From NCBI GenBank assembly GCA_018812245.1, contig JAHJDW010000032.1:1095-65094 (forward strand): a stretch of DNA of 64,000 bases, in the 5' to 3' direction. The notes beneath the pieces were generated by a model. That model searched no databases and had not been told where the DNA came from. It saw only the letters and a program-made list of their open reading frames with translations. This document shows, one piece after another, positions 1,949 through 55,228 of this stretch; position 1 is the first letter of the stretch; each line of letters starts with the position of its first letter. Source of the DNA: Bacteroidota bacterium. GTDB lineage: Bacteria > Bacteroidota > Bacteroidia > Bacteroidales > JAHJDW01. Made by a program: the position numbers and the translations under genes.

Positions 1949-2146
1949 GCCGCCAAAATTATCAGATAAATGATGCAACAGTACAACACAGATGTGTGTA
2001 ATACTTAGACACAGTGTGATATATTTGTTCTCATTTCCGGACACAATTTATTAGCGAATTGACTGTTGGGGTTTCAGAAATCAAAATCTTCCGCCCGCTT
2101 TCTTGCGGATTTCCATTATATTTGTCTGATAATTTCAACGAACCCG

Positions 2147-4080: not shown

Positions 4081-6414
4081 TCAGTCTTTTATGCACCGTA
4101 CTGAGAAACCTCTTGTTTTGAAGTCATTTCCAATTCTCAGATCAACATAGTTGTATTCAATGCGCTTATATGCTGACTTTGTTGCATCTGATTCTGTAGC
4201 TGCCCACCATGTGCCGGTTGTGCCGAGCCCGTAAAAATCGCCATAAACCTGATCCCTGTCGCCGCCGGCGAGACCAGAAAAACCACTCATATTGTTTAAT
4301 GTGAGGTTTTCGCCAGGCGCACCAGTTGTTGCTGTTGTATTCCAGCCTGCGTTCGCAGCCATTGATCTTGCAATCTTATTGCCTGTGGTTGTCCCATCCC
4401 AGTTGTAGCCACTGTCAATAAGGAATATCGCCAGCTCTGTCCATTCCAGATTTGTTGGAATGTGCCAACCAGCCGGGCAAATTCCTTGGGTAGTACCCGG
4501 ATCTCCTGCATCGGATGGGGAATATTGCATCATCTCAGTCCATTCATACAAGCCTCCATAAGTAACGCAATACGAAGCCATATTTGCCAAACAGTACTTT
4601 TCTATCAACGCGTTATTGGTTTGCAATTGTCCGCCCGCTACTGAGGTAATCATAGTACCCACATTCAGATTTTTTGCCATCCAGCACTGATCACCTAGTT
4701 GTACTGTAGGATAAGATTGTCCATCGCGAATGTCGGTAAAAATGGTTCCACAGCCCACAATCAGCGCGGCCGGATTCGATATCTCCGTCCCACACGCATT
4801 TGTGATATGGCATTTGTACAAGTACCCGGTCTGGGATACTGAAGCATTCAGAATCATCATTGTATCATTTCTTACACCAGAATATTGCGGACTTGTTCCA
4901 CCATCGGTCAAAAATCGCCAGGTAATTCCGTTGTCAGGACTTTCCATCCATTTATAATACAGCTTTGAGCCAGTGGCCAAGACCGAAAACGTAACATCTC
5001 CTCCCGGCCAGAGCGCCTGATTCACAGGCTGATCCACTATACTGGGATACACGCAATTCATGGGTGTACACCAGATACTTTCCCAATATCCAAGAAATAT
5101 TTGCAAACAGCTATCTGTTGTGTTAAAAATCATTGAACTTAGTCTCGGAGATAATATCGCATCACGCTCAGTAGTAGTAAGATACACTACATTAAACCCT
5201 TCGCGGTCGGCTTGCATAACAAGGCTGTCTGCATTGCCCACGACTTCTCTGAATCCACCAACTCCAAACCCTTTTCGCTCATCCGGAGGAACCGAGTCGT
5301 CGGTATCAATATAAACTCTTACGCTATCAGGAGTAACACGCAAATATTCGTTACTCAATGATTTATTTGGTGCTTTTCCGGAAACTGCAAAACCGCCACG
5401 ATTTGACGACTTTGAACCGCCATCATCCATCACATAAAACCGGATGCTGTCTTCCGTAATTTTCATCCACTCTGTTTCGGTAGCTCCATCTCTTCCGAAA
5501 ACGCTAAATCCTGAGTTTGAAGTTGTTGAGCCTTCCTGAATAAAAACTCTTGCACCTTCGGGATACACCGCGAAAACAGTATTTCCATCTTTGTCTTTCA
5601 CTTCAAAAAGCGGAACATTGGCTGAATCGGTAACTTCGCCCTGCACTTCCAGTTTTCCCGACGGAGAAGTAGTTCCTATCCCAATGTTGTTTCCGGTATT
5701 GTACAATTTTGATGAAGCTTCCCAATCCGTTCCGTTGTGCCTGAGCGTTTGTCCGGTGGCGCCTGGGATGGAACCCGTCGCACTCGTACCGGTTGGACCC
5801 GTAGCTCCGGTAACGCCCGGCAAACCATCATCGCCTGTGGCACCCGATGGACCAGTCGCGCCGTCATTTCCCGAAACTCCTGCGGGACCTGTTGCACCAT
5901 CAATTCCGGCTGGACCAGTAACGCCATCAATTCCGGCAGGTCCCGTAACACCATCACTTCCGGACAGACCTGTCGGACCAGCAATTCCGGTTGGTCCGGT
6001 TGGTCCTCCATTCAGCGAATAAAGAGCGTAGGGAACTGCCAGCAACTCCGATGTTCCCATGAAAATATATGTGCTCCCCCCTGTTAAATCTGCCTCAACA
6101 GAAATGAAGTGCGAAGCTGTTGCCCAACTGATGGTATCAAAATCGCCTGAAACTGGTGTTCCCCTCCCAACTTGTAAGTTGACAATTCCGTACATGTTTG
6201 TCTGCAGACTATGAGTCTCCTGATACACTTGAGTACCCGAAGAAGACCCTTCCAGAATGCTGATTCTGATTGATACTTGCTGGTCAACCAATAAGGTTCC
6301 TGATTGATCGCGAATAACGGCCTGATAATTAAAAGATTGTGGCTGAACTTGCGCCAAAACTGGAAATGTTAACAACAACATTGCAAACAAAGAGAACAAA
6401 AATGTCCGGTTCAT
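4081..6414 (-). CDS. secreted mosaic protein: collagen-like Gly-X-Y tract, Ig-like region and a C-terminal FISUMP (Fibrobacter succinogenes major paralogous) domain
   Basis: The ATG at 6414 gives the signal peptide [23 protein letters not shown] Gly-X-Y run follows ([73 protein letters not shown]). The C-terminus matches the FISUMP pattern: [66 protein letters not shown]. Confidence 0.8.
5752..6009 (-). repeat. collagen-like Gly-X-Y coding repeat (about 85 codons)
   Basis: The triplet periodicity GGN-NNN-NNN is visible in the DNA. It generates spurious long ORFs in other frames and on the other strand (5591-6022, 5676-6011, 5737-6087). Confidence 0.85.
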
Positions 6415-6633
6415 AACAATTGCGTATTTGGGTTTCGAAATCACAAAGATTTGATAAAAATAGGAAAAATTGCATTTCCTTCGATCGAAAAATTTAAAAC
6501 GAATAAAAATAATTGCTGGCATTACATCAATGATGTCGTCTGAGGTTAAGGATTGATAATAATTTTAGGGTTTTTTTATAAATTGCATCCCCATAATCAA
6601 ATTTTGTAGCACGCTCTTTCAAAAAAAAATCTC

Positions 6634-23430: not shown

Positions 23431-24795
23431 ATGTATGCCATCATAGATGTTGAGACAACAGGGGGAAGTCAGCTTAGGACTAAGATTACAGAGTTATCTA
23501 TCGTAATATTTGACGGTGAAAAGGTAGTTGATACTTTCAACACATTGTTGGACCCGGAGTGTCTGATTCCGCCATTTATCAGCCGGCTGACAGGAATCAC
23601 CAACGCAATGGTGGCAGGGCAACCAAAATTCTTTGAAGTTGCGCGGAAAATAGTCGAAATTACAGACAACAGGATTTTCGTGGCACACAATGCCCAGTTT
23701 GACTATTCGGTCATCAGGCAGGAATTCAAAAATCTGGGCTACAACTTCGTCAGGAAAACCTTGTGTACCATACGACTTGCGAGAAAAGTACTTCCTGGTA
23801 GAAAATCGTACAGCCTCGGTAACATTTGCAAGGAGCTTGAAATTGAGCACAACAACCAGCACCGCGCTTATGGCGATACTGAGGCTACGCTGAAACTTTT
23901 CAAGCTACTGCTGGACCTCCGGCCGGATGTCGGACTTTTTGAGGACATATCAACACGTTCGGGCGGAATGCAGCTTCAAAAATGTTTCGACCGCGAAAAC
24001 CTCCGGAAAATCCCTGAAGCAACAGGAATCTATTACTTCCTGAACGAAAGTGGTGATGTGATATATGTCGGAAAAAGCAAAAATATCCGCAGGCGGGTAA
24101 TGAGCCATGCGCGAGCAGGAATAACCGCCCGCAAAGATGAAATGCTGTACCGTACGCACTCCATTTCGTACGAGATTATGGGAAGCGAGCTTGTTGCTTT
24201 TTTGATTGAAAGTGAGAAGATAAAAACACTGCGACCACTGTTTAACCGCGCACAACGGCGCATTTCGCACAACATTGGTTTGTATGCCGAAAAAACAGAC
24301 AAAGGTTATGGGCGATTGATTATCAAGGCGATAGACAAACAGTTGCCGCTCACCACATTTTCATCGCGTGCTGAGTCGAAACGCCTGCTGTACGCGCTGG
24401 CTGCCGAATTCGAACTTTGCCATTCGCTCTGCAATTTATATCAGTCAGCCGGACCATGCTTCCAATATCAGATCGGAGAATGCAAAGGCGCATGTGCGGG
24501 CGCGGAAAAACCGGCTGACTACAACAAACGTTTGCGGGCAGCTATCGAAAAGATCAGATTCGGCAACAAGAGTTTTTTCATTATCGAAAAAGGTCGTGTT
24601 CCGGGCGAAACAGCAGTTGTGCAGGTGCAAAACGGCAAATATATTGGCTTTGGGTTTACTTTCGATACGATTGCACCCACCTCCAGCGACCTTCTGTCCG
24701 GCTACATACAACCCTATTCCGACAACCGCGACGTAAGACTTATCCTCCAATCATACATCCGCAAGCCGGATAGGACCAATGTGGTGTATTATTAG
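23431..24795 (+). CDS. DnaQ-like 3'-5' exonuclease fused to a GIY-YIG (UvrC/Cho-like) nuclease domain
   Basis: Exo I motif at the N-terminus (YAIIDVETTGG), FVAHNAQFDYSV (Exo II) and HRAYGDTEAT (Exo III). The GIY-YIG block GIYYFLNESGDVIYVGKSKNIRRRVMSH follows. Confidence 0.85.
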   Translation: MYAIIDVETTGGSQLRTKITELSIVIFDGEKVVDTFNTLLDPECLIPPFISRLTGITNAMVAGQPKFFEVARKIVEITDNRIFVAHNAQFDYSVIRQEFKNLGYNFVRKTLCTIRLARKVLPGRKSYSLGNICKELEIEHNNQHRAYGDTEATLKLFKLLLDLRPDVGLFEDISTRSGGMQLQKCFDRENLRKIPEATGIYYFLNESGDVIYVGKSKNIRRRVMSHARAGITARKDEMLYRTHSISYEIMGSELVAFLIESEKIKTLRPLFNRAQRRISHNIGLYAEKTDKGYGRLIIKAIDKQLPLTTFSSRAESKRLLYALAAEFELCHSLCNLYQSAGPCFQYQIGECKGACAGAEKPADYNKRLRAAIEKIRFGNKSFFIIEKGRVPGETAVVQVQNGKYIGFGFTFDTIAPTSSDLLSGYIQPYSDNRDVRLILQSYIRKPDRTNVVYY

Positions 24796-24856: not shown

Positions 24857-27103
24857 TTGGCTGAAACTTTTGAAATAAAAATCACCGGACTGGTACAAGG
24901 CGTAGGATTTCGCCCTTTCGTGTATCGGATTGCCACGCAAAACGGGCTGATGGGTTGGGTCAACAACCGCAGCGACGGCGTGGTAGTTCGTGTGAATACC
25001 GACAAAGATGGCGTGGAACGTTTCATCAGTCAGATTCGAGGTGAAGCGCCTCCGGCTTCTGAAATTAATCATACAGAGTACGTTCAGATTGATAATGAAT
25101 TATTTACAGAATTTTCAATTATTAAAAGTGAAGCCATTTCGGGAGAAATTACCGAGGTTAGTCCTGATATTGCACTTTGTGTTGATTGCCTGAACGACAT
25201 GAAACATCAGAAACATCGCATCAGATATCCCTTTGTCAACTGCACCAATTGCGGTCCGCGCTTTACTATTATTCGTGACCTCCCCTACGACCGGCCAAAA
25301 ACAACGATGAGCAGTTTCGAAATGTGTGATACGTGCAATAAAGAATACACCGATATTCTCGACCGCCGTTTTCATGCACAGCCTGTGGCATGCAACACTT
25401 GTGGCCCGCAACTGATGCTGCTTCCGGAGTCAGAGTTGAGATCAACCGATGAAATTGTCAGTTATGTAGCTGCCCGGATTGATGATGGAGAAATTGCGGC
25501 AATAAAAGGTATGGGCGGATTTTTCGTAGCCTGTGATGCCGAAAACCAAAGTGCAGTGGTTCGCCTTCGTGCCGGAAAGCAGCGTGAATCAAAACCTTTT
25601 GCGTTGATGTTTCGTGATACCGAAACCCTGAAACACTACGCCAGAGTTTCGCCAAGCGAAGAAGCACTGTTGCAGTCGTGGCGCCGGCCTGTCGTGTTGC
25701 TCGAAAAAATCAAAGAACCCGCTCCTGCTGCCTTAAACGGCTTGAAATACATCGGCGCCATGCTGCCCTATATGCCAATTCACTACCTGCTTTTCGAAAA
25801 GTTGAAATGCAGTGTATTGGTAATGACTTCCGGGAACATCAGCGACGAACCCATTGTGATTGATGATAAAACGGCGCTCAGCACGCTGAAACCTGTTGCA
25901 TATCTGGTTTTGGGATACAATCGCGAGATTCATAACCGAGTTGACGATTCAGTAGCGTTTTGCATCGGCGAAACTGTGCATCTGATGCGGCGTTCACGAG
26001 GGTACACGCCCTCCCCGGTGCGACTGCCAATGAGAACTGAAGGTATTTTTGCTGCCGGAGCGGAATTGGTGAATTGCTTTGCCATCGGTAAAGGCAATCA
26101 AGCCATTATGAGTCAGCATATTGGTGATCTGAAAAATGCGGAAACGCTTGATTTTTATACTGAATCCGCTGGCAGATACTTGCGCCTTTTCCAGTGCGAA
26201 CCCGAAGTGTTTGTCGCTGACCTTCACCCCGATTATCTCTCAACGCGTTTTGCCCGTGAAAGCGGAAAGCCCGTCATTTTCGTACAGCATCACCATGCCC
26301 ATATTGCATCGGTAATGGCAGCCTGCGGTATTTCCGACAAGGTGATTGGCGTTTCGTTCGATGGAACCGGTCTGGGAACCGACGGCACTATTTGGGGTGG
26401 CGAGTTTATGGTAGCCGATTTCAATGATTTTGAGCGACTATTTCACCTTGAGTACATTCCATTACCGGGTGGCGACAGCGTTACAAAGCAACCCTGGCGT
26501 ACAGCCCTTTCGTGGATTATCAAATGCTACGGGGCGCTGTGGGAAGAAAGGTTCAGTAAACTTTTTCCGGAAATACAAATTCAGGAAGCGCAAATATTGG
26601 CACAAGCTATCCACCTGAAAATCAATTCACCCGTTTCGTCGGCAGCCGGCAGGTTGTTTGATGCAGTAGCCGCCATTATCGGAGCATGTACCGAGGCATC
26701 GTTCCACGCTGAAGCGCCCATGCGTCTGGAAAATCTGGCAAGCGCTGAATGCAGCGAAATTTACCCGTTTCAGGTCAATGGAAGCGAAATAATGTGTTCA
26801 GACATTATCTCGGCAATAGTGTCTGATCGGATGAATGGAATCCCGGTAGAAGCAATTTCCACACAGTTTCATCACACGATGGCGATTATGATTCAGAATA
26901 TCTGCGAGCAGATTCGAGCCACAAACGGAATCAGCGAAGTGGCACTCACCGGAGGCGTTTTCCAGAACAGGATATTATTGCAGTCAGCAACCACCTTGCT
27001 CACCCGTTCAGGCTTTCAGGTGCTTCAGCAATCGAAAGTCCCACTCAACGATGGCGGCATCGCATTAGGGCAATTGGCGATAGCCGCAGCACGGAGAGGA
27101 TAA
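24857..27103 (+). CDS. hypF: carbamoyltransferase HypF ([NiFe]-hydrogenase maturation family)
   Basis: TTG start. Acylphosphatase-like ITGLVQGVGFRPFVYRIA. Two zinc-finger pairs (CVDCLNDM...NCTNCGPRFTII and CDTCNKEY...CNTCGP). YrdC-like IAAIKGMGGFFVACDA and a Kae1-like C-terminal half (VALTGGVFQN). Confidence 0.9.
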   Translation: MAETFEIKITGLVQGVGFRPFVYRIATQNGLMGWVNNRSDGVVVRVNTDKDGVERFISQIRGEAPPASEINHTEYVQIDNELFTEFSIIKSEAISGEITEVSPDIALCVDCLNDMKHQKHRIRYPFVNCTNCGPRFTIIRDLPYDRPKTTMSSFEMCDTCNKEYTDILDRRFHAQPVACNTCGPQLMLLPESELRSTDEIVSYVAARIDDGEIAAIKGMGGFFVACDAENQSAVVRLRAGKQRESKPFALMFRDTETLKHYARVSPSEEALLQSWRRPVVLLEKIKEPAPAALNGLKYIGAMLPYMPIHYLLFEKLKCSVLVMTSGNISDEPIVIDDKTALSTLKPVAYLVLGYNREIHNRVDDSVAFCIGETVHLMRRSRGYTPSPVRLPMRTEGIFAAGAELVNCFAIGKGNQAIMSQHIGDLKNAETLDFYTESAGRYLRLFQCEPEVFVADLHPDYLSTRFARESGKPVIFVQHHHAHIASVMAACGISDKVIGVSFDGTGLGTDGTIWGGEFMVADFNDFERLFHLEYIPLPGGDSVTKQPWRTALSWIIKCYGALWEERFSKLFPEIQIQEAQILAQAIHLKINSPVSSAAGRLFDAVAAIIGACTEASFHAEAPMRLENLASAECSEIYPFQVNGSEIMCSDIISAIVSDRMNGIPVEAISTQFHHTMAIMIQNICEQIRATNGISEVALTGGVFQNRILLQSATTLLTRSGFQVLQQSKVPLNDGGIALGQLAIAAARRG

Positions 27104-27110
27104 TATTCTA

Positions 27111-30100
27111 CTACAATTCCCAATTAACCGAAATCTCTGGCAATCCGGTCAAAAATGCATTATTGTCACCGATCACTACGGTGTGGCCTCCGTCAGTTAG
27201 CAAACTGAGCGAAAGCACCAACTGCTCAACATCAAAAGGATGAAGACCGGCTGTAGGATTATCCATCAGGTAAAGCACATGACCGCTGGTTTCTGTGCGA
27301 ATTTCACGAAGCAGATAAAGTCGCTGAAACTCCCCTCCACTCAACTCCGATGTCAACTGATTCATCTTCAAATAATCAATGCCAAGTTTGGCCGATAATT
27401 TCATGGATTTCGCAATTTTCATAATGTCGGCAAACTCAATCGCCGCTTCGCGCATTTCCATCCTGAGAATATCAGTGATGGATTTGCCTTTTCGCAACAC
27501 CTGAAGCACTTCACTTCTGTACATACGTCCTTCACACACAGGGCATTCGACCCATAAGTCTGGCAAAAAATCCATATTGAAGCGTACCTTGCCAAGTCCA
27601 CTGCATTGATTGCAACTTCCTGACTTTGAGCCAAATAAAAATTCTCTTGAGGAAAAGTCAAACTGCTGAATTTTGGCTATTGCTGCAAACTCTTCTGCAA
27701 TCAGGCTATGAATTCCGGAATACGTGCTTACAAGACTTCCCGAGGAAGCTCTGGCTGTTGAACTGTCAACAAAAACAACTTTGCTGAATTTCCCTGTATT
27801 TCCGACATATTTTCGAAGCATTCCCTTTAGCATCGCAGTTCCTGCCCTTCCCCGAACCAGATATATTGCCCCAAAATGCAAATCGCTGCGGGGTTCTTTC
27901 TGCGAATTTCCATCGGCAGGAATCAATGATTGCTTTTCAACAATCTCTTTCAACTTCCAATAATACCGCGAAGTCAGATTTTCTCTGGAAAGAATCTCTT
28001 CACGTGTACCAAAATCAACAATTTCGCCACCCGAGCTGCCAGCTCCTGGCCCTGTTTCAATGATGAAATCGGCATTGTCAACCATCAGCGGCGAATGATC
28101 GATGACCAGTACGGTGTTGCCTTTCGCTTTTATCTCGCGCAAAAAACCTGCGGTAACCGCGATTTCATCTGCCTCCAATCCCAGCGAAAGCTCATCGAAA
28201 ACACATATCATTCCCGACAAATCGGTTTTTAGCAATCGAAGCATCTGGAGTTTCCGGAACTCACCTGCCGACAAACAATCTGTAGGGCGATCCAGTGGAA
28301 GACCTCCCAAACTGATCTTCAACAACAACTTCGATATGTTTAGAATGCTGTTGTAAAGTGACGAAAAATGGCCGACGGATGAAGTATTCTGTGAGCTGAT
28401 TATCTCATGCAAATCACGGACCGGCATTGCCGAAATCTGACCAATATTTAAACCATTATATGTAAATGATAACGCATAACGGTTTAGTCTATATCCATTG
28501 CAATCACTACATTTTTGTTCTTTCATCAGTGGATTAATAATATCAGCCCGTGCATCGGCGTGCTTTCTTGCATATTCATCATTAATATATCCACTAAACC
28601 CCTTCCATACACCGCTGAACTTGTGCGTTCCTGTTCGGCCTTTCCGGTCGTAATGCCATTCCACATCGTACTTTTCTTCTCCGGTACCGAGAGTAGCAAT
28701 TTTTCTGGCATCTTCATCCAATTGATTCCACGCCACACTGAAATCAATGTTTTTCGATTTGCCAACTGCAATCAGAGTATTCACATACTGCCCGCTTGGA
28801 TCACCATAAAAACTCCCGGTTTTTGTCCCCTGCAATGCGCCATTAATCAGCGGGAACTCCGGATTTGTGATATACACATCCGGATCAGCGGAAAGTTGGT
28901 ATCCCAAACCGTCGCAATATATACAGGCTCCTTTTTCGTGATTAAACGAAAAAACAGATGAAAGCAGGGTTTCATTCTGATCGTTTCCTCTGGCAAACAA
29001 CAGCCTGAGCAAATCATAAACCTCGGTATATGTTCCAAGCGTTGATCTTTTCCCTGACCGGGTACTCCCCTGTTTCAGCGCAACGGCAGGTCGGATATTC
29101 TTAACATCCTCGTACTCCGCTTGCGATAGTTTCGGAAGCATAGAACGTACATACGTTGAAAGGTTCTCGGTAAAAATTCCGCTGCCTGCACTAAATACCG
29201 TATCATAAGCTATGGAAGATTTCCCGCTACCTGAAATTCCGGTCAGTAGAGTAATTTTGTTCTCAGGTATCGTTATGTCAATATTTCGGAGGTTGTTAGT
29301 AGAAACGCCGCGAAATGTGATATTTCGATCACCAATCAACTTTGGCGGTTGCGATTTTACTACAAAAGAGGCATCATCGGAATTGAGTTTTGACAGAAAC
29401 CGACCAATTGCTGAATGTGACAACTTCAGAAAGGCTGAAACCGGACCTTGAGCAATCAGATATCCGCTATTATTGTCACTGTCCATACCTAATTCAACAA
29501 TATGAGCCGCACCAGCCAGAAAAACCGGATGATGTTCAATAGCAATCACCGTATGTCCCAATTCCGTCAGGCGTTTCAGAATTTCCAACAGTCTGACTGC
29601 ATCATCCGCATGTAAACCTATTGTGGGATGATTGATCACAAACAGCTTCTCGCCAGCAGTTTTTCTGGCCAGCTCGGTGGCGAGCTTAATTCTTTGCGCC
29701 TCACCTCCTGAAAGTGTTGTGGAAGGCTGACCCAACGAAAGGTAGCCCAGACCGATGTCCTTTAACACCTTAAGCACAGCGGTAATCTTATTCTCGTGCG
29801 TAAAAAAGCCAAGCGCTTCTTCAACTTTCATCTCCAGCACCTCACTGATATTGTTGCCCCTATATTGTACCGTGAGGGTTTCGTCGTTAAATCTTTTTCC
29901 CTCACAACCTGGGCAAATGCTATGCATAGTTCCCAGGAAGTGCATTCCAACGCTGATCACTCCTGCACCTTCACATTTTTCGCACCTTCCGCCTTTCACA
30001 TTGAAAGAAAACCTGCTTTTCCCAAAACGTTTGGCTTTGGCGACAGGCTGACGGGCAAACAAGTCGCGGATTTCGTCAAACACTTTTGTGTATGTTGCGG

Positions 30101-31781
30101 CATTGCTGCGAGGTGTTTTTCCTATCGGATTCTGCGAAATATTAACCAATTGCATGTTTTCAACACCGCGTATTTCGTCGCAACCTACAGGAGCTTCGGC
30201 TTGAATACTCCCACACAACACTCCGCCTACCAGGCTTTTCCGACCGGAGCCACTGATTCCAGTCACCAGATTAATCGCTCTTTTGCAAAATTCCACCGAT
30301 ACTTTCCGCAGGTTTTGCAAGTCGGCATTGATAATCGAAATTTTCTCATCCCCTGGCGGTTGCAGAGGTTTGATTTCCCGAAATTTCTCACCACAAACCC
30401 ACGATCGCGTAGTAATTTTGTTTTGATGGTTGAAAAACTCGCTTGCTGGTCCGCTGAAAACCACTTCCCCGCCTTTATCGCCGGCTTCGGGACCCAATTC
30501 GATGATATAGCTTGCCCTCCCAATTATCTGCAAGTTATGCTCCACTGCAATTACGCTGTTTCCGCGGGCAACCAGATTCTCAATGATCTGAATTACGCTA
30601 CTTACCTCATCGGGATGCAGTCCGGCGCCCGGCTCATCAAGAACAAAAAGCACATTCGTGATTTTGGAATCAGCAAGATTCGCCAGTCTTAACCGCTGCA
30701 CTTCACCCCCGCTAAGCGAAGAAGTTAGCCTTGAAGGAGAAAGATAACCCAGTCCGAGCGACATGATCGCCGATGTTTTCTTCAGAATTTCGTTACTGAT
30801 TGCGGCGTCAACTTCCGAAATTTTATGAGACAAATGAGTAGTAAACAAAGAATGAATCGCTTCGAGCGACAATGCGTTCAACTCTGCGATATCTTTTCCC
30901 TTGAATGACACAGAAAGAGCAGCATCGGAGAGCCTTTTCCCGGAACATTTTCGGCAAGTAATCGTTTTGCAGAATCGCAGAATACCCGGATTTTTCTCTC
31001 TGTTGAGAATTACCTGCATCACCGGGATTATTCCTTTGTAAAAACCTTCTTCACGTGGTTTTGCGGTAATCCCTGTCCAGGTCATGCGACTTTCAAGCGT
31101 ATGCTTTCCGAACGGGATTATAATATTCTCGCTTCCGTATAACACGACGTGTTTGTCGGCTTCAGTGAGTTGGTTCCATGGAATGTCGATCGAAAAACCG
31201 TTGACCACACACACTTCATTCAGCACATCAAGTGTTACTTGCGAATACATGATGTAACCGTTTGGGGTTGTGATACTCATGCAACCTTCGCGCAGCGATT
31301 TATTGGCATCTTCGATCAACATTTCCGGATCAATATAATACTCGGTACCGATGCCTTCGCAAGCCGGACAAGCGCCCGGAGGTGCATGAAACGAAAACAG
31401 ACTGCGTGACAAGGGTACATTCTGATCGCCGGTTTTTTCGCCACAACGGGCATACAGCAACCGGAACAAATCATATATTCCGGTGTATGTGCCAAGCGTT
31501 GAGCGTGGATTGCTGACTGCTGTGTGCTGGTTGATCGTGAGAACCGGTTTCAATCCGGAAATTTCATCCACATCAGGTCGCGATAGTCGCTGCATATACT
31601 GCCTGATATGGGCGCTGTATGTTTCAAAGAACCGGCGACGGCTTTCCCGGGCAATAATGTCGTAAACCAGCGATGATTTGCCACTTCCGGAAACTCCGGT
31701 AACACAAATAAACGTATTGTGTGGCAATTCGATATCAATGTTTTTCAGATTGTTATGCCTCGCTCCTTTTATTCTGATCAT
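27111..31781 (-). CDS. giant tandem double UvrA-like ABC ATPase (1556 aa, four nucleotide-binding modules)
   Basis: Two UvrA-like halves. P-loops: GVSGSGKSS, GISGSGRKS (Lys displaced), GISGSGKSS, and none recognisable in module 4. Signatures: LSGGEVQRL, LSGGEAQRI, LSAGEFRKL, LSGGEFQRL. Walker B: LFVLDEPGAGLH, LFVINHPTIGLH, ICVFDELSLGLE, LYLMDNPTAGLH. UvrA-type CxxC zinc modules: CPAC...CRKC, CEKC...CPGC, CIYC...CSDC, CNQC...CPVC. Confidence 0.85.
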   Translation of the reverse strand: MIRIKGARHNNLKNIDIELPHNTFICVTGVSGSGKSSLVYDIIARESRRRFFETYSAHIRQYMQRLSRPDVDEISGLKPVLTINQHTAVSNPRSTLGTYTGIYDLFRLLYARCGEKTGDQNVPLSRSLFSFHAPPGACPACEGIGTEYYIDPEMLIEDANKSLREGCMSITTPNGYIMYSQVTLDVLNEVCVVNGFSIDIPWNQLTEADKHVVLYGSENIIIPFGKHTLESRMTWTGITAKPREEGFYKGIIPVMQVILNREKNPGILRFCKTITCRKCSGKRLSDAALSVSFKGKDIAELNALSLEAIHSLFTTHLSHKISEVDAAISNEILKKTSAIMSLGLGYLSPSRLTSSLSGGEVQRLRLANLADSKITNVLFVLDEPGAGLHPDEVSSVIQIIENLVARGNSVIAVEHNLQIIGRASYIIELGPEAGDKGGEVVFSGPASEFFNHQNKITTRSWVCGEKFREIKPLQPPGDEKISIINADLQNLRKVSVEFCKRAINLVTGISGSGRKSLVGGVLCGSIQAEAPVGCDEIRGVENMQLVNISQNPIGKTPRSNAATYTKVFDEIRDLFARQPVAKAKRFGKSRFSFNVKGGRCEKCEGAGVISVGMHFLGTMHSICPGCEGKRFNDETLTVQYRGNNISEVLEMKVEEALGFFTHENKITAVLKVLKDIGLGYLSLGQPSTTLSGGEAQRIKLATELARKTAGEKLFVINHPTIGLHADDAVRLLEILKRLTELGHTVIAIEHHPVFLAGAAHIVELGMDSDNNSGYLIAQGPVSAFLKLSHSAIGRFLSKLNSDDASFVVKSQPPKLIGDRNITFRGVSTNNLRNIDITIPENKITLLTGISGSGKSSIAYDTVFSAGSGIFTENLSTYVRSMLPKLSQAEYEDVKNIRPAVALKQGSTRSGKRSTLGTYTEVYDLLRLLFARGNDQNETLLSSVFSFNHEKGACIYCDGLGYQLSADPDVYITNPEFPLINGALQGTKTGSFYGDPSGQYVNTLIAVGKSKNIDFSVAWNQLDEDARKIATLGTGEEKYDVEWHYDRKGRTGTHKFSGVWKGFSGYINDEYARKHADARADIINPLMKEQKCSDCNGYRLNRYALSFTYNGLNIGQISAMPVRDLHEIISSQNTSSVGHFSSLYNSILNISKLLLKISLGGLPLDRPTDCLSAGEFRKLQMLRLLKTDLSGMICVFDELSLGLEADEIAVTAGFLREIKAKGNTVLVIDHSPLMVDNADFIIETGPGAGSSGGEIVDFGTREEILSRENLTSRYYWKLKEIVEKQSLIPADGNSQKEPRSDLHFGAIYLVRGRAGTAMLKGMLRKYVGNTGKFSKVVFVDSSTARASSGSLVSTYSGIHSLIAEEFAAIAKIQQFDFSSREFLFGSKSGSCNQCSGLGKVRFNMDFLPDLWVECPVCEGRMYRSEVLQVLRKGKSITDILRMEMREAAIEFADIMKIAKSMKLSAKLGIDYLKMNQLTSELSGGEFQRLYLLREIRTETSGHVLYLMDNPTAGLHPFDVEQLVLSLSLLTDGGHTVVIGDNNAFLTGLPEISVNWEL

Positions 31782-40091: not shown

Positions 40092-40505
40092 TTAGTGCGA
40101 AACTGTCATCACTAATCTGCCGTGTGTGATTCCTTTCAGCCCGATAAGATTGTCGGCAAGTAACTGAAGCTCACGCGCTTTGCCCTTAACCGCAATTGTT
40201 TCAAGACAATGATCATGATCGAGGTGAACATGCTGAACCGAGAGAATGAGGTGGTGAAAATCATGTTGAACATGCGTTGATTTTTTCTGCAACTCCCGTT
40301 TGTGATGATCATAAACCAAAACGATAGCACCAGCAACCATTTCGTCGTCGCTCCATTTCTCTTCAACCATGTTCTTTTGCACTAGATATCGTATTGCCTG
40401 CGAGCGGTTTGGGAATTTGTGATTCGCTACCAGACCGTCGAGTTCATTGAGCAGGTTTTCGTCGAGCGAAACTCCGAAGCGTTTAATTGTTCCTTTTTTT
40501 GCCAT
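40092..40505 (-). CDS. nikR: nickel-responsive transcriptional regulator NikR
   Basis: The ATG at 40505 gives [42 protein letters not shown] (ribbon-helix-helix). The ACT-like metal-binding domain follows, with its His cluster ([10 protein letters not shown]...[25 protein letters not shown]). Confidence 0.85.
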
Positions 40506-40510
40506 AGCGA

Positions 40511-40549
40511 CAAAAATAACACATTTTTGCAAAAATGAAACGCATTTTG
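40511..40549. promoter_or_regulatory. cluster of CAAAAAT/ATTTTTG half-sites, including a perfect 14-bp palindrome ATTTTTGCAAAAAT (40523-40536)
   Basis: CAAAAAT-AACAC-ATTTTTG-CAAAAATG-AAACG-CATTTTG, read directly in the 58-bp nikR / MBL-hydrolase divergent region. Confidence 0.4.
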
Positions 40550-40557
40550 TATCTTTG
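40526..40557 (+). promoter_or_regulatory. Bacteroidota-type promoter: -33 TTTG (40526-40529), 20-bp spacer, -7 TATCTTTG (40550-40557)
   Basis: Both consensus elements are present with canonical 19-21 bp spacing. The ATG of the MBL-fold gene is at 40564. Confidence 0.6.
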
Positions 40558-40563
40558 TCAATA

Positions 40564-41331
40564 ATGAAAATCAGCTTTCTTGGCACCGGCACCTCTACAG
40601 GAGTTCCTGTAATCTCATGCACCTGCGAAGTATGTACGTCGGCAGACCCACGCGACCAGCGACTGCGCTCCTCCCTTCTGCTGGAAAACGCCGACGATAA
40701 GATCATCATCGACTGCGGTCCGGATTTTCGTCAACAGATGATTAGTATCAACATGGATTTCCCGACAGGCATAATTATTACGCACGGTCATCGCGACCAC
40801 ATTGCCGGGCTGGATGATATCCGCGGATTTAATTTCATTCATCGCAAACCAGTCGAAATATTTATTCCTCAACATTCATTACATGCAATCCAAACGGAAT
40901 TTCCGTACATTTTCAACCCTGGCAATTACAAAAGAGCGCCATCTGCAAACATCCATACGCTGAAAGGCGAGAATTTCACTGTGGGAAGCACTACTTTCAC
41001 GCCTCTGCCATGTTTGCATAATTTAGAGGAGGTTTGGGGATATAAAACCGGGAACTTTGCCTATATCACCGATGCCAGCTCCATCTCTGAAGAGACCATT
41101 GATCTTCTGTCAGGCATCGACTATCTGGTGCTTAATGCGCTACGTATTAAGCCCCATCCAAGTCATTTCTCTCTCGAACAAGCCATTGATCTGGTATTAA
41201 GAGTAATTAAGCCGGGCAAGGTCTGGTTTACCCACATCAGTCACTTCATGGGACTTCATGCCGATGCCTCCGAATTTCTCCCCGAAGGAATTTCATTGGC
41301 TTACGACGGGCTATCTGTTGAGTTGAGCTGA
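40564..41331 (+). CDS. MBL-fold metallo-hydrolase (PhnP/GPDQ-like)
   Basis: [26 protein letters not shown] (Cys-rich N-terminus as in PhnP-like enzymes) and the HxHxDH motif as [14 protein letters not shown]. Confidence 0.8.
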
Positions 41332-50777: not shown

Positions 50778-52988
50778 ATGAGGATACTGATTACGTTTTT
50801 GCTGGGATGTAGCCTGTTGTTGAGTAAGGCAGTTGAGGGACAATCGAATAAACCGGATAGTCTGCTGCAACTGTACAATTCCGTGTCGTCTGATAGTTCA
50901 AGACTGGATGTTCTTTCGCAGCTATTCGAGTACTCCATGGAATCAGGTGATGCCGAGAAAAGTGCTGCATACTCATATCGGCTCATTGCAGAATCGGATA
51001 GTCTGAAAATCACACTCAATTCTTCGATTTACTCACGCATGGGTGACATTTTGAAGTTTGTCGGCGATTTCGACTCTGCCATTCTAATGGGGAGAAAATC
51101 GGTTGAGGTTGCTGCCGGTGAAGGTGATGCGCTTGGTGTCACAAAAGGTCTGGGACGTCTTGGCTATACCTACTACAATCGAGGAAACTATACATTTGCC
51201 GCAACATGCATGATGCAAGCCTTGAAACTGGCGGAGAAAAATCAGTTTGAAAAGGAAATTCCTTACATATATTGTATTCTGGGTTTTATTTACAGAGACT
51301 ATCCTGATCTTGAAAGGTCAAAGAAGTACTTTACACTGTCATGGAATAAAGCTTTAGAACAAAACAATACACCTTATGTGTCAACTTCGATCAGTGAAAT
51401 TGGCAACATATACCAGTTGGAAGGAAAATCAGATTCAGCGATCAGGTATTTGCAAGCAGCCCTTGCACTTCGTTTGAAGAACGGGGAGACTATTTCCGTT
51501 GGATATTCATACAACGATATCGGGAATTATTACATCGTGAAAAAGAATTACCGGGAAGCTTTGAATTACATGAAGAAGTCGCTTGACCTGTGTGAAAAAT
51601 CAGGTGAAAAATGGGGGCTTCCGATCACATATTCCAACATCGGATACGCGTATCAGCAATTGGGAGAGCTTTCTCAGGCAAAATATTACTACGACAATGC
51701 CATTTCAAGGTCGAAGGAAATGAATACGCTATCTCAGATTGCCAATTCTTATCTGGTGATTTCAGATTTCTATTCCAGTCAGAAAGAGTACAAGATGGCT
51801 TACGAGTTACTCTCGCTACATTTGTCATACAGGGATTCCCTTATGAATAGTGAAAAGCAACAGCAGATTGAAGAACTCAACACAAAGTACGAGACTGAGA
51901 AAATAGCAAGCCGGAATGAGATTCTGGAAAAGGACAAAGCACTCAGAGATGCTGATCTTGCGCGAAAAAACACACTCACTCAGGCTCTGATCGGAGGATT
52001 GTTGCTACTTGGAATTTTGTTTGTGGTGAGCATTAGAGGGTATCGTGCAAAAAAGAGAGCAAACACCATACTGAGAAGACAGCAGGGTGAAATTCTTGAG
52101 AAAAACGAAGAATTGCAACAGCAAAAAGAAGAAATTATTGCACAACGTGATGAAATTGAGAAACATCGCGATGAAGTTGAGCGACAGCGTCTGGTTGCAG
52201 TAAATCAGCGTGATGAAATCAAGGAACAGAAGAAATTGGTTACTGATTCCATTCAATACGCGCTCAGAATTCAGCAAGCGATTTTACCCCCTAAAAACAT
52301 GTTATCGGGCATGTTTTCTGACAGTTTCATATATTATCAGCCGAAAGACATTGTGAGTGGCGATTTCTACTGGATCGAAAACCAACATGGGAAGAGATAC
52401 TTTGCAGCGGTTGATTGCACCGGACATGGCGTTCCTGGTGCATTCATGAGCATTATGGCTACATCGTTGCTCAATCAGGCAGTTAACGAGAAAAACATTT
52501 CCGATCCGGGGGAAATACTGGATTTCATCAACGAACAGCTCAATTTCACAATCCGCTCACGCGGTGAGGACATTTCTGTTAAGGATGGAATGGATCTTTC
52601 GGTTTGCGCTATTGATAACAATCAGGTATTAGAAGCCGCTGGTGCTTTCAATTCGGTATATATTATCCGCAGCGGGAAATTATTTACCGTCAAAGGCGAC
52701 ATTCACCCGCTGGGGACGCCCTTTGAAGAGGAGTTCAACGGATACAAAACGACCGCCGTTCAATTGGAAAAAGACGATGCGGTATATGCGTTTACTGATG
52801 GCTACATAGACCAGATGGGCGGAGTAAAACGAAAACGATTTCTGACCTCGCGTCTGCGTGAGAAGCTGATCGCCATTCATGGGTTGAAGATGGAGGAGCA
52901 GTATCTTATTCTGAAAAACACGATCACGGATTGGAAATCAGACAATGAGCAAACCGACGATATACTAATAATGGGGATAAGAGTGTAA
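50778..52988 (+). CDS. TPR-repeat membrane sensor with a C-terminal PP2C/SpoIIE-type phosphatase domain (paralogue 1)
   Basis: Signal peptide, TPR array, coiled coil (LNTKYETEKIASRNEILEKDK), TM helix (LIGGLLLLGILFVVSI), second coiled coil (QQQKEEIIAQRDEIEKHRDEVERQR). PP2C blocks: ALRIQQAILPP, VSGDFYW, AVDCTGHGVPGAFMS, FTDGYIDQ, TDDILIMGIRV. Confidence 0.85.
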   Translation: MRILITFLLGCSLLLSKAVEGQSNKPDSLLQLYNSVSSDSSRLDVLSQLFEYSMESGDAEKSAAYSYRLIAESDSLKITLNSSIYSRMGDILKFVGDFDSAILMGRKSVEVAAGEGDALGVTKGLGRLGYTYYNRGNYTFAATCMMQALKLAEKNQFEKEIPYIYCILGFIYRDYPDLERSKKYFTLSWNKALEQNNTPYVSTSISEIGNIYQLEGKSDSAIRYLQAALALRLKNGETISVGYSYNDIGNYYIVKKNYREALNYMKKSLDLCEKSGEKWGLPITYSNIGYAYQQLGELSQAKYYYDNAISRSKEMNTLSQIANSYLVISDFYSSQKEYKMAYELLSLHLSYRDSLMNSEKQQQIEELNTKYETEKIASRNEILEKDKALRDADLARKNTLTQALIGGLLLLGILFVVSIRGYRAKKRANTILRRQQGEILEKNEELQQQKEEIIAQRDEIEKHRDEVERQRLVAVNQRDEIKEQKKLVTDSIQYALRIQQAILPPKNMLSGMFSDSFIYYQPKDIVSGDFYWIENQHGKRYFAAVDCTGHGVPGAFMSIMATSLLNQAVNEKNISDPGEILDFINEQLNFTIRSRGEDISVKDGMDLSVCAIDNNQVLEAAGAFNSVYIIRSGKLFTVKGDIHPLGTPFEEEFNGYKTTAVQLEKDDAVYAFTDGYIDQMGGVKRKRFLTSRLREKLIAIHGLKMEEQYLILKNTITDWKSDNEQTDDILIMGIRV

Positions 52989-52999
52989 TAAACAGCAAT

Positions 53000-55228
53000 A
53001 TGAAAAAAGCAAAGTGCATATTCTTCCTGATGTTTATTTTCCAGCTCGTGATCCATCCGGGCTATGGCACTGAAAAAGACACCTTGCCGGAGGTTTACAA
53101 GGCTTGCAATACAGATACGTGCCGGGTAAGGATTTTGCTGGAAATCGCCAATGGATTTGCCGGAAAGAAAAATGATAAAGCCGAAGCTTATGCAATAATG
53201 GCGTTGGATATTGCCAAAGAGAACAAACTTCTGGCAGAAGAATCGAATGTCAGAACGACGCTGGGAATGATATACGGTAGAGGTGGAAAATACCGGGATG
53301 CCATCACGCAATCATTGATTTCAGCCGACATCAAAAGAACTATTAACGATCTGGAGGGTTTAGCGAAAACGTACAACAATCTTGGAACAACATATTATTA
53401 CAAAGGCGACTACGACAGCGGCATAGCTTTTCATATTAAATCCATTTCGATCAAAGAAGAAATTGGCGATTCGATCGGAATGGCGAATTCATACAATAAT
53501 ATAGGAAACATTTACAATGAGACCGACCGGATTGAGGATGCCCGTAAATACTACAACCTATCATTGGATGTTGCGAGGAAAATCGGGGATATCAGCGCAG
53601 AAGCAAGGGCAGTGAGCAACCTCGGACTTGTTTTTTATGACATGAAAGAATTCGAAAAAGCCATTGAATTCTTCAACAAGTCGATTGATCTTAAGCTTGC
53701 AATGAACGACGAAAAAGGTTCTTCAACATCGCTGAATAATCTTGCTGTGGTTTACCGTGATATGGAAGAAAATGAGAAAGCACTCCGGATTTTTGAAAAA
53801 GTATTGGATATTAAAACGAAATACAACGATCCCTGGGGGCAGGCAAATACGCGTAATAATCTTGCCAGTTGCCAAACGAAGCTGGGAAATCATAATGGCG
53901 CAATCAAAAATTGCAGCATTGCATACGATCTGGCTGACCAATTGGGATCACTTCCCGTAAAGCGTGACGCATGCCAGGGATTGTTTATTGCCTACGCACA
54001 GTCAGGCAACTTTGAAAAAGCATTTTTAAACGCTGAGGAATTCATTATTCTGAACGACAGCATCATGAATACGGAGCGGGACAAAACGATTGCCAATTTC
54101 CGTGAAAAATATGAGACCGAAAAGAAGGAAAAGGAAATCCAGCTTTTGAATAAAGACAAAGAATTACAGGATGCCGAGATAAAAATGCAGCAGGTTGATC
54201 TGGACAACAAGCGACTTCAGCGCAACGGCTTCATCATCGGGTTTATTTTTGTCGGGTTGCTGGTAATTATCGCCATATACGCATATATACAAAAGCGAAA
54301 AGACAACAGGAAATTAGCACAGCAAAGAGACGAAATCACGATCAAGAATCAGGAACTGGAGCAGCAGAAAGAGGAAATCTCAGCCCAACGTGATGAAATT
54401 GAAAAACAGCACGGAATTGCTATCATTCAACGCGACGAGATTCAGCACCAGAAAACGATGATCACTGATAGCATCAGCTACGCACAGCGGATTCAGCAGG
54501 CTATCCTCCCTCCCATTGATGTGATAAAATCAGTGCTTCCCGGGTCATTTGTTATGTTTCAGCCCAAAGATATTGTGAGCGGTGATTTTTACTGGGTTCA
54601 GAAAGTACAGGCATCAAACGGAGATGACATTGTAGTTGCAGCAGCAGCCGATTGCACAGGACATGGTGTTCCCGGAGCATTCATGAGCATTTTATGTTCA
54701 AATATTCTGAATCAGGCAATCAAGGAACGGGATGTGAGCGATACCGGCGGACTAATGAATTATCTATCAGCAGAAATCCGGCGTTCTTTGCGCAGAGATT
54801 CTTCAATGGAAGAAGTGAAAGACGGCATGGATCTGACGCTGGCAGCCATTAACAAGCAAAAAATGGTAATGGAATACTCAGGAGTTCACAATCCGCTTTA
54901 CATTGTACGCGATGAAAATGTTATGACACTCAAAACCGACGATCACCCTCTTGGAGAGCCGTTTTCTGAAGAATTTCCATCATATACAAAATACCATCTT
55001 GATTTGTTGTCTGGCGACTGGCTTTACATGCTCTCCGACGGATATCCCGACCAGTTTGGTGGAGAAAACAGGAAGAAATTACTCCGGAAGCGATTCAGGG
55101 AATTAATAAGCAGGGCAGTTAAACTTTCCGGAGAACAGCAGGAAAACCTGCTTCGGGAAACTTTTAACACCTGGAAAGGAAATGTGGAACAGTACGATGA
55201 TGTACTTGTTTTTGGAATTAAAATATGA
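53000..55228 (+). CDS. TPR-repeat membrane sensor with a C-terminal PP2C/SpoIIE-type phosphatase domain (paralogue 2)
   Basis: Same architecture as the upstream gene: KYETEKKEKEIQLLNKDK, TM helix IIGFIFVGLLVIIAIYAYI, EQQKEEISAQRDEIEKQ, AQRIQQAILPP, VSGDFYW, AADCTGHGVPGAFMS, LSDGYPDQ, YDDVLVFGIKI. Confidence 0.85.
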   Translation: MKKAKCIFFLMFIFQLVIHPGYGTEKDTLPEVYKACNTDTCRVRILLEIANGFAGKKNDKAEAYAIMALDIAKENKLLAEESNVRTTLGMIYGRGGKYRDAITQSLISADIKRTINDLEGLAKTYNNLGTTYYYKGDYDSGIAFHIKSISIKEEIGDSIGMANSYNNIGNIYNETDRIEDARKYYNLSLDVARKIGDISAEARAVSNLGLVFYDMKEFEKAIEFFNKSIDLKLAMNDEKGSSTSLNNLAVVYRDMEENEKALRIFEKVLDIKTKYNDPWGQANTRNNLASCQTKLGNHNGAIKNCSIAYDLADQLGSLPVKRDACQGLFIAYAQSGNFEKAFLNAEEFIILNDSIMNTERDKTIANFREKYETEKKEKEIQLLNKDKELQDAEIKMQQVDLDNKRLQRNGFIIGFIFVGLLVIIAIYAYIQKRKDNRKLAQQRDEITIKNQELEQQKEEISAQRDEIEKQHGIAIIQRDEIQHQKTMITDSISYAQRIQQAILPPIDVIKSVLPGSFVMFQPKDIVSGDFYWVQKVQASNGDDIVVAAAADCTGHGVPGAFMSILCSNILNQAIKERDVSDTGGLMNYLSAEIRRSLRRDSSMEEVKDGMDLTLAAINKQKMVMEYSGVHNPLYIVRDENVMTLKTDDHPLGEPFSEEFPSYTKYHLDLLSGDWLYMLSDGYPDQFGGENRKKLLRKRFRELISRAVKLSGEQQENLLRETFNTWKGNVEQYDDVLVFGIKI

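Follow-up and report, generated by a model that had tools for sequence, protein, structure and literature searches.

A tandem double class II UvrA from a Bacteroidota bacterium with both distal ATP sites predicted to be inactive

What can a UvrA-like protein do when two UvrA units are joined in one chain and half of its ATP sites appear to be out of use? The question is raised by one gene in a 64,000-nt stretch of DNA from a Bacteroidota bacterium (GCA_018812245.1, contig JAHJDW010000032.1), called the window here. The gene occupies positions 27111..31781 on the minus strand, as do all of its features given below, and has an ATG start and a complete reading frame of 1556 amino acids plus stop; its product, a tandem UvrA paralogue of class II type, is referred to as the double UvrA. 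An earlier note on this DNA had drawn attention to the gene, with these coordinates but no strand; the plus-strand reading of 27111-31781 was rejected on account of stop codons throughout its translation. The architecture itself proved to be common but unstudied, and what is unusual here is the loss of both distal ATP sites, which is rare.

Two UvrA units in one chain

The protein has two UvrA-like halves, half A from residue 1 to about 798 (29388..31781) and half B from residue 821 to 1556 (27114..29321), joined by a linker of 22 amino acids (residues 799-820, LNSDDASFVVKSQPPKLIGDRN; 29322..29387). Over 769 aligned columns the halves share 30% identity (E 1e-113). The UvrA model TIGR00630 scores 1245.9 bits against a cut-off of 729.8 and NF001503 scores 1243.7 against 1147, with five stretches matched across both copies, so the head-to-tail fusion proposed in the earlier note is borne out.

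The domain content of each half is that of a shortened UvrA. Half A aligns end to end with the class II protein UvrA2 of Deinococcus radiodurans (2vf7; E 2e-165), while about residues 138-279 of Bacillus stearothermophilus UvrA are skipped: the first 137 chain residues of 2r6f are matched by the protein up to about residue 115, and the alignment resumes at 280. Half B, which has the same domain set with a more diverged ATPase core, shows the same jump, and about 140 residues of the 2r6f and 9gxk chains are passed over in both halves. A match to 3PIH was also found (E 5e-185). The UvrA insertion domain PF17755 is present twice, at residues 151-231 and 966-1060, each time within a zinc module 2 (C138/C141 and C276/C279 in half A, 30945..31370, E 4e-12; C953/C956 and C1091/C1094 in half B, 28500..28925, E 1.4e-9), and a profile of the corresponding N-half region of the family described below maps to 2r6f chain residues 280-447, which are Zn2 and the insertion domain. 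Pfam gave no match to the UvrB-interacting domain PF17760 at E <= 0.01 in either half; as a positive control, the same model detects this domain in double-length UvrAs of another kind (P0187, P0137 and P0146). The C-terminal zinc finger, zinc module 3, is found in half A (C600/603/623/626; 29904..29984) and in half B (C1390/1393/1413/1416; 27534..27614), and is kept in at least 254 of 255 relatives for the former and in 254 of 255 for the latter. All 16 zinc cysteines are present in the double UvrA, each conserved in at least 254 of the 255 relatives.

Both halves thus lack the UvrB-binding domain and zinc module 1 but keep the insertion domain, Zn2 and Zn3. With that domain and module missing from both, each half is a class II UvrA unit, made up of two ABC nucleotide-binding domains (NBDs), an insertion domain flanked by Zn2, and a C-terminal zinc finger. 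The earlier note was right that one NBD-I insertion is missing per half, which the Pfam and PDB alignments identify as the UvrB-binding domain with zinc module 1, and right that signature domain I has one pair of CxxC motifs per half; it overlooked the further zinc module, Zn3, in each half.

The fused gene is well supported as a gene. It is a single uninterrupted reading frame of 4.67 kb, and the in-frame codon-usage signal is even along its whole length, the diverged C-terminal third not excepted. The identical protein is encoded in a Logan assembly made independently from run SRR2540949, which has one mismatch to the window in 7837 nt. The 90% cluster of the protein contains two shorter proteins, of 810 and 742 amino acids, from the metagenome-assembled genome (MAG) GCA_018822935.1; there the gene is split over two contigs matching window positions 36747-29350 and 29418-17111, which overlap by 69 bp, and the second continues in frame out of half A, via the linker, into half B. 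The two proteins are pieces of one gene and not separate genes, and the junction of the halves is read through in three assemblies. The contig break lies near the linker (window about 29350-29418, codons about 788-810). The second contig (L089) starts with 67 nt of unrelated sequence (positions 1-67) that has in-frame stops and abuts codon 788; either this contig end is chimeric, or a minority allele carries an insertion or rearrangement where half A ends. The independent SRR2540949 assembly, the in-frame MAG contig, and the same fused layout in 175 aligned relatives exclude chance and assembly error as the source of the fused frame. Of the two ways in which the earlier note could have been overturned, mis-assembly is contradicted by these assemblies, which are continuous across the junction, and alignment found neither both insertions in place nor all four ATP sites canonical.

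State of the four ATP sites

ABC sites are composite, each pairing the Walker motifs of one domain with the signature of a partner domain, and the assignment of proximal and distal sites used here is that of the papers on Ecm16 and UvrA. Proximal site A is complete, with Walker A (GVSGSGKSS, residues 29-37; 31671..31697), Walker B and H-loop of module 1 and the LSGGE of module 2. Proximal site B is likewise complete, with Walker A (GISGSGKSS, residues 848-856; 29214..29240), Walker B and H-loop of module 3 and the LSGGE of module 4.

The distal sites have degenerate motifs. Four catalytic residues are gone from distal site A: the lysine and serine of the module 2 Walker A (K514R and S515K in GISGSGRKS, residues 508-516; 30234..30260) and the aspartate and glutamate of its Walker B (D717N and E718H in LFVINHP, residues 713-719; 29625..29645). 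Distal site B has lost five elements. No P-loop was found in module 4 at the aligned residues 1306-1325 (IYLVRGRAGTAMLKG); the place of the lost Walker A (IYLVRGRAGTAMLKGMLRKY; 27807..27866) is an alignment gap, and the structure model has there a strand, a 3-residue loop and a helix with a pLDDT of 55-65, the loop being shortened. The other four losses are Q1340S, E1508N in Walker B (LYLMDNP, residues 1503-1509; 27255..27275), H1540N in the H-loop (window 27162-27164), and a partner signature, that of module 3, which reads LSAGE (residues 1170-1174; 28260..28274). Because composite sites pair partner domains, this LSAGE belongs to distal site B and not to a site of module 3 itself.

Every motif quoted in the earlier note (GVSGSGKSS, GISGSGRKS, LFVINHP, GISGSGKSS, LSAGE, LYLMDNP) is present, and module 4 has no P-loop, as claimed; H1540N, Q1340S and S515K are three further losses that it overlooked. 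Its description of alternating intact and degenerate sites holds for this protein, but, sites being composite, the pattern is better read as both proximal sites intact and both distal sites dead, and it is a trait of the lineage and not a property of the architecture, as 208 of the 255 relatives have four canonical sites. The sequence thus predicts two competent (proximal) and two incompetent (distal) ATP sites.

The pattern of loss is best described as selective inactivation of the distal sites and not as drift or decay, to judge from what is kept. Among 264 positions conserved in at least 93% of the family, 245 (93%) are retained, and in NBD-II of half A the Walker A lysine and the Walker B glutamate are the only family-conserved positions changed. 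The retained residues and zinc cysteines, the concentration of changes on catalytic residues, and the even codon signal together argue for targeted loss.

Degenerate sites are familiar from other ABC proteins. CFTR and TAP1/TAP2 each have one degenerate, non-hydrolytic composite site, but these are membrane transporters with two sites in total. The likeness lies in the pairing of degenerate Walker motifs with a degenerate partner signature, here the module 4 motifs with the LSAGE of module 3, while the double UvrA is predicted to be soluble and DNA-binding and has four sites, of which two are degenerate. Within UvrA, class I proteins (2R6F, Thermotoga maritima 3PIH, and the Clostridium thermocellum 9GXK series) share with the double UvrA the ABC core, the insertion domain, Zn2, Zn3 and composite sites. 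Both site types are essential in class I UvrA, where distal nucleotide binding gates the proximal site, and canonical Walker A and B motifs in proximal and distal sites alike, a class I criterion, are not what is found in the double UvrA. It also differs from class I in the absence of the roughly 140-residue UvrB-binding domain, and no coupling to UvrB is expected. Class II UvrAs (D. radiodurans UvrA2, 2VF7/2VF8; Ecm16, 7SH1; and DrrC) have the domain set of each half, but they are homodimers of 800-840 amino acids, while the double UvrA has two units, 30% identical, in one chain of 1556; it differs from them further in having both distal sites non-catalytic and no biosynthetic cluster context.

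The double class II UvrA family

An alignment of 256 sequences of at least 1400 amino acids, the double UvrA and 255 relatives, placed the protein among its kin. An insert of the size of the UvrB-binding domain is absent from both halves in 176 sequences, present in both in 72, and present in one half in 8. The double UvrA belongs with the 176: its length falls within 1450-1700 amino acids, it has no insert in either half, and it has a linker of about 20 residues, a linker that in the family has a median of 20 amino acids (interquartile range 19-24) and a poorly conserved sequence. Its closest kin is a Bacteroidota-type double class II family (P0001-P0120, loci L008-L087), with which it shares length class, linker, zinc ligands, and the motifs Y-x-x-YSQVT and GKHxLExR; it is at most 44% identical to any member, and about 80% of members have four canonical ATP sites, while it has two. 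Of the signature of the N-half insertion domain (YSQVT, GKHxLExR, W-x-G-x-x-A-x-PR), which is present in the double UvrA, 52 of 55 conserved positions are kept.

Members of this family are numerous, but close relatives were not found. A word-indexed search returned thousands of homologs, the best-scoring of 1550-1700 amino acids and none above 44% identity; those with a source name are mostly from MAGs of Bacteroidales or other Bacteroidota and annotated 'excinuclease ABC subunit UvrA'. An exhaustive HMMER search of the C-terminal half against 1.84 billion cluster representatives gave 2801 matches at E <= 1e-30, none above 41% identity, and a scan of genome contigs for close relatives found none. 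The family-specific insertion domain occurs at no fewer than 581 places in the species-representative genomes of GTDB, mostly in Bacteroidales, with some of the remainder in Chlorobiota, Aminicenantes and Acidobacteriota; environmental Bacteroidales are the centre of the family. A literature search on duplicated or 'class III' UvrA returned only the classes I, IIa and IIb (Marszalkowska 2013, as given in a citing paper) and no characterised double class II protein. PG1036 of Porphyromonas gingivalis is a paralogue of single length. The earlier note, too, was aware of no characterised member; the architecture, however, is by no means rare.

Other long UvrAs are tandem fusions of a different make. 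Double UvrAs with UvrB-binding domains (NF001885/PRK00635, 1809 amino acids; P0187, P0137, P0146) have PF17760 in one or both halves, while the window protein has none, and the Chlamydia-type model NF001885 scores it at 792.2 bits, below its cut-off of 3054. All three of P0187, P0137 and P0146 were found by Pfam to have PF17760, twice only in P0146. The 72 representatives with inserts in both halves span 1560-2340 amino acids, mostly 1750-1960; P0146 and P0168 have 2334-2343. Tandem fusion of UvrA appears from these sequences to have yielded several architectures.

Walker A and B are canonical in all four modules in 208 of the 255 relatives (about 80%). Where a Walker motif departs from pattern, it does so in module 2 in about 30 relatives, in module 3 in 7, and in module 1 in 3; on inspection about 2 of the 10 relatives with an off-pattern module 1 or 3 are genuine proximal losses. 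The distal site of the first half alone is altered in about one-ninth of relatives, with GSG[RK]KS and LNEP as recurrent module 2 variants in members that are otherwise intact. Among the sampled relatives both distal sites are lost only in P0268 (1515 amino acids). P0268, P0159, P0155, P0141, P0139, P0123 and P0199 are other long-branch members in which distal sites are degenerate independently, and several of them combine a GSGRK[ST] P-loop in module 2 with an intact Walker B, which may mean that such a site is not simply dead. As judged from these alignments, the distal sites appear to be the dispensable ones across the family.

The two insertion domains differ sharply in conservation. The N-half domain (residues 145-272) is the most conserved region of the family, with a mean pairwise identity of 60% among diverse representatives and 74% among top hits, while the C-half domain (residues 960-1088) is among the least conserved, with 33% and 52% on the same two sets; the ATPase regions have 30-45% and 46-64%. 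The halves are therefore not equivalent and are likely to have different jobs family-wide, and the conservation of the N-half domain argues for one common substrate or partner over a diversity of drugs.

The gene has ordinary chromosomal neighbours in the window, among them dnaX, asparagine synthase, hypF, FloA/NfeD, pyruvate phosphate dikinase (PPDK), an M16 peptidase, and a DEDD/GIY-YIG nuclease. The 64-kb window has no biosynthetic cluster, no defence island, and no canonical uvrA, uvrB or uvrC; two candidates for a canonical uvrA were rejected, an ORF of 934 amino acids at 56398-59202, which is PPDK, and one of 663 at 2066-4057, which is a caspase/TPR protein. No conserved neighbourhood was found, as the surroundings of homologs on three long contigs resemble neither one another nor the window, and tblastn of the window neighbours against 86 other loci placed the DEDD/GIY-YIG nuclease at none and hypF at 2. 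Genes for double class II UvrAs stand by themselves, in unrelated chromosomal contexts. A scan for promoters gave 11 promoter-like sites against 8.3 +/- 2.6 in shuffled sequence, with a sigma-70 consensus that is unsuited to Bacteroidota, and terminator-like sites numbered 10 against 6.0 +/- 2.5, so that both counts lie near expectation. For the window PPDK, no other database sequence exceeds 81% identity; the organism is therefore taken to be of an unsampled Bacteroidota-like lineage, which would explain part of the divergence of the double UvrA.

Several neighbours deserve mention in their own right. The nuclease (23431-24795, plus strand) is a 454-amino acid protein combining a DnaQ-like DEDD 3'-5' exonuclease with a GIY-YIG/UvrC_M nuclease, Cho-like or like the N-terminal part of UvrC (NF005906, E 5e-76). 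Its distance from the double UvrA is 2.3 kb, with hypF between; the nearness of two repair-type genes is suggestive but is not conserved in the 86 other loci. The carbamoyltransferase gene hypF (24857-27103, plus strand; TIGR00143) is convergent with the double UvrA gene, with a 7-bp gap between the stop codons; no other hyp gene is present among the annotated ORFs of the window, and a NikR-like regulator (40092-40709, minus strand) lies 13 kb away. Two adjacent paralogues of about 740 amino acids (50778-52988 and 53000-55228, both plus strand) have TPR/FimS-like and SiaA-like PP2C phosphatase domains. The caspase-like protein (2066-4057, plus strand) is of the EACC1-associated type with TPR repeats, and adjoining it is a gene (4081-6522, minus strand) for an 813-amino acid protein with collagen-like repeats and a FISUMP domain.

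Proposed function and what it would mean

The reading considered probable is that the double UvrA is a stand-alone, UvrB-independent, DNA-binding ABC ATPase driven by its proximal sites only. Without a UvrB-binding domain the protein would not load UvrB, which would put its role outside UvrABC incision, as the earlier note had supposed. A precedent is the class II protein Ecm16, which confers resistance without UvrA, B, C or D, does not complement an Escherichia coli uvrA mutant, and depends on its insertion domain as well as its ATPase; by analogy the double UvrA would also act independently of UvrB. Double-stranded DNA is probably held in a groove between the two halves, arranged as the two protomers are in a UvrA dimer, and an abnormal state of the DNA is probably sensed via the two insertion domains, which are not equivalent. 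Clamping, remodelling or release would then be powered by ATP turnover at the two proximal sites only, with the dead distal sites serving as fixed structural interfaces; nucleotide might still be bound, though not hydrolysed, at distal site A.

Several points weigh against this reading. In canonical C. thermocellum UvrA with the distal Walker A lysine mutated (K647A), neither site holds nucleotide and the dimer stays in the basal conformation, and in canonical UvrA distal nucleotide binding is required before proximal ATP is loaded and that conformation is left. If wired like canonical UvrA, a protein without distal sites would be inert, so that a working one would need other allosteric wiring; the double UvrA is either differently wired or largely inert. 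Its dimer-like packing is inferred: the AlphaFold2 model covers residues 357-1556 only, with a mean pLDDT of 81.5 (about 63 in the linker) and a pTM of 0.66, of which half B alone could give about 0.55, and its best PDB matches are UvrA and UvrA2 with TM scores of 0.6-0.72 normalised to target length. The constrained length of the linker fits a dimer-like packing of the halves, though neither it nor the truncated model bears on the packing itself. The protein also has a very long branch in the family tree, the sixth longest of 256, and its NBD3b and NBD4 are 29-32% identical to relatives, compared with 48-49% among the relatives themselves. This divergence also fits relaxed selection, and at an identity of at most 44% in the searches made, no relative is close enough for dN/dS. 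Finally, no member of the double class II family carries a known substrate or phenotype.

These same observations are the strength of the proposal that the gene is a decaying paralogue under relaxed selection, its ATP-site losses an early stage of pseudogenisation and its product doing no useful work. The long terminal branch, the accelerated divergence of NBD3b and NBD4, the five separate elements lost from distal site B, the need of canonical UvrA for distal nucleotide binding, and the unrelated 67 nt at codon 788 in one assembly, possibly an interrupted allele, would all be expected of it. It is nonetheless unlikely, given a reading frame of 4.67 kb that is uninterrupted, the retention of 93% of family-conserved residues and of all 16 zinc ligands with substitutions concentrated on catalytic residues, a codon signal that is even up to the C-terminus, and the occurrence of like distal variants (GSG[RK]KS, LNEP) in other, intact members. 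A resistance protein of the DrrC/Ecm16 type, which would recognise DNA loaded with an intercalator or other DNA-binding natural product and displace the drug, was the suggestion of the earlier note. Each half does have the class II architecture of Ecm16 and DrrC, and Ecm16, dependent on its insertion domain and its ATPase, works with no need of UvrB, UvrC or UvrD. The context lends this no support, with no biosynthetic gene cluster in 64 kb and no neighbourhood conserved across the 86 other loci; the N-half insertion domain, the most conserved region, is 60-74% identical within the family, compared with 32% between the substrate-defining insertion domains of Ecm16 and DrrC, and is thus the reverse of what a drug-specific adaptor would show; and Ecm16 needs its ATPase, no protein of its type with dead distal sites having been reported. 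A drug-displacing role is accordingly doubtful as well, and about as improbable as decay.

Three further explanations have much lower probability. That the protein is the working nucleotide excision repair (NER) UvrA of the organism, merely fused into one chain, would agree with the NCBIfam equivalog models for UvrA scoring above their cut-offs and with the Cho- or UvrC-like nuclease gene 2.3 kb away; it is very unlikely, as neither half has the UvrB-binding domain or zinc module 1, though the same Pfam model finds that domain in other double UvrAs, class II Ecm16 fails to replace E. coli UvrA, and the nuclease neighbour is at 0 of 86 other loci. A part in an anti-phage system related to MADS is still harder to credit. 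PADLOC profiles for mad3 (PDLC04135, E 4e-77, residues 4-444) and mad8 (PDLC04140, E 9e-31, residues 489-752) match modules 1 and 2, but MADS is an eight-gene operon in which MAD6-8 are required for detection, and the double UvrA gene has no methyltransferase, nuclease or other mad-like gene beside it; in the window and in the relatives examined it is a solitary gene in an ordinary chromosomal setting, and such matches would be expected from shared ABC/UvrA-type nucleotide-binding domains. Given these matches, UvrA-like ATPases may occur in the MADS defence system. An assembly artefact joining two adjacent uvrA-like genes, to which the two contigs and the separate 810- and 742-amino acid calls in GCA_018822935.1 might point, has a negligible probability: those contigs share 69 bp and one continues in frame through the linker, the Logan assembly spans the whole gene, and conservation of the fused layout extends to hundreds of genomes.

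Beyond the proposed UvrB-independent ATPase, a wider and more tentative suggestion is that the protein is a natural single-chain UvrA pseudo-dimer working on two proximal ATP sites, and that the family as a whole is an asymmetric DNA sensor. The invariant N-half insertion domain would read one conserved DNA state or partner, and the variable C-half domain would do something else. This is possible, but clearly less to be relied upon than UvrB-independent action.

With no UvrB binding expected, the label 'excinuclease ABC subunit UvrA' probably misstates the role of the family, and the NER capacity inferred from genomes of Bacteroidota MAGs could be affected by it. Should the protein prove ordinary, the practical outcome is a correction of annotation, for an error likely repeated in hundreds of genomes. 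What the proximal and distal ATP sites of UvrA each contribute is still a matter of debate, addressed chiefly through point mutants. In a fused double UvrA the two 'protomers' are free to diverge, which makes the family a natural library of asymmetric variants, and the window protein is its extreme case, having lost both distal sites and kept the rest. If active, it would show which steps of DNA clamping and release need ATP at the proximal sites only.

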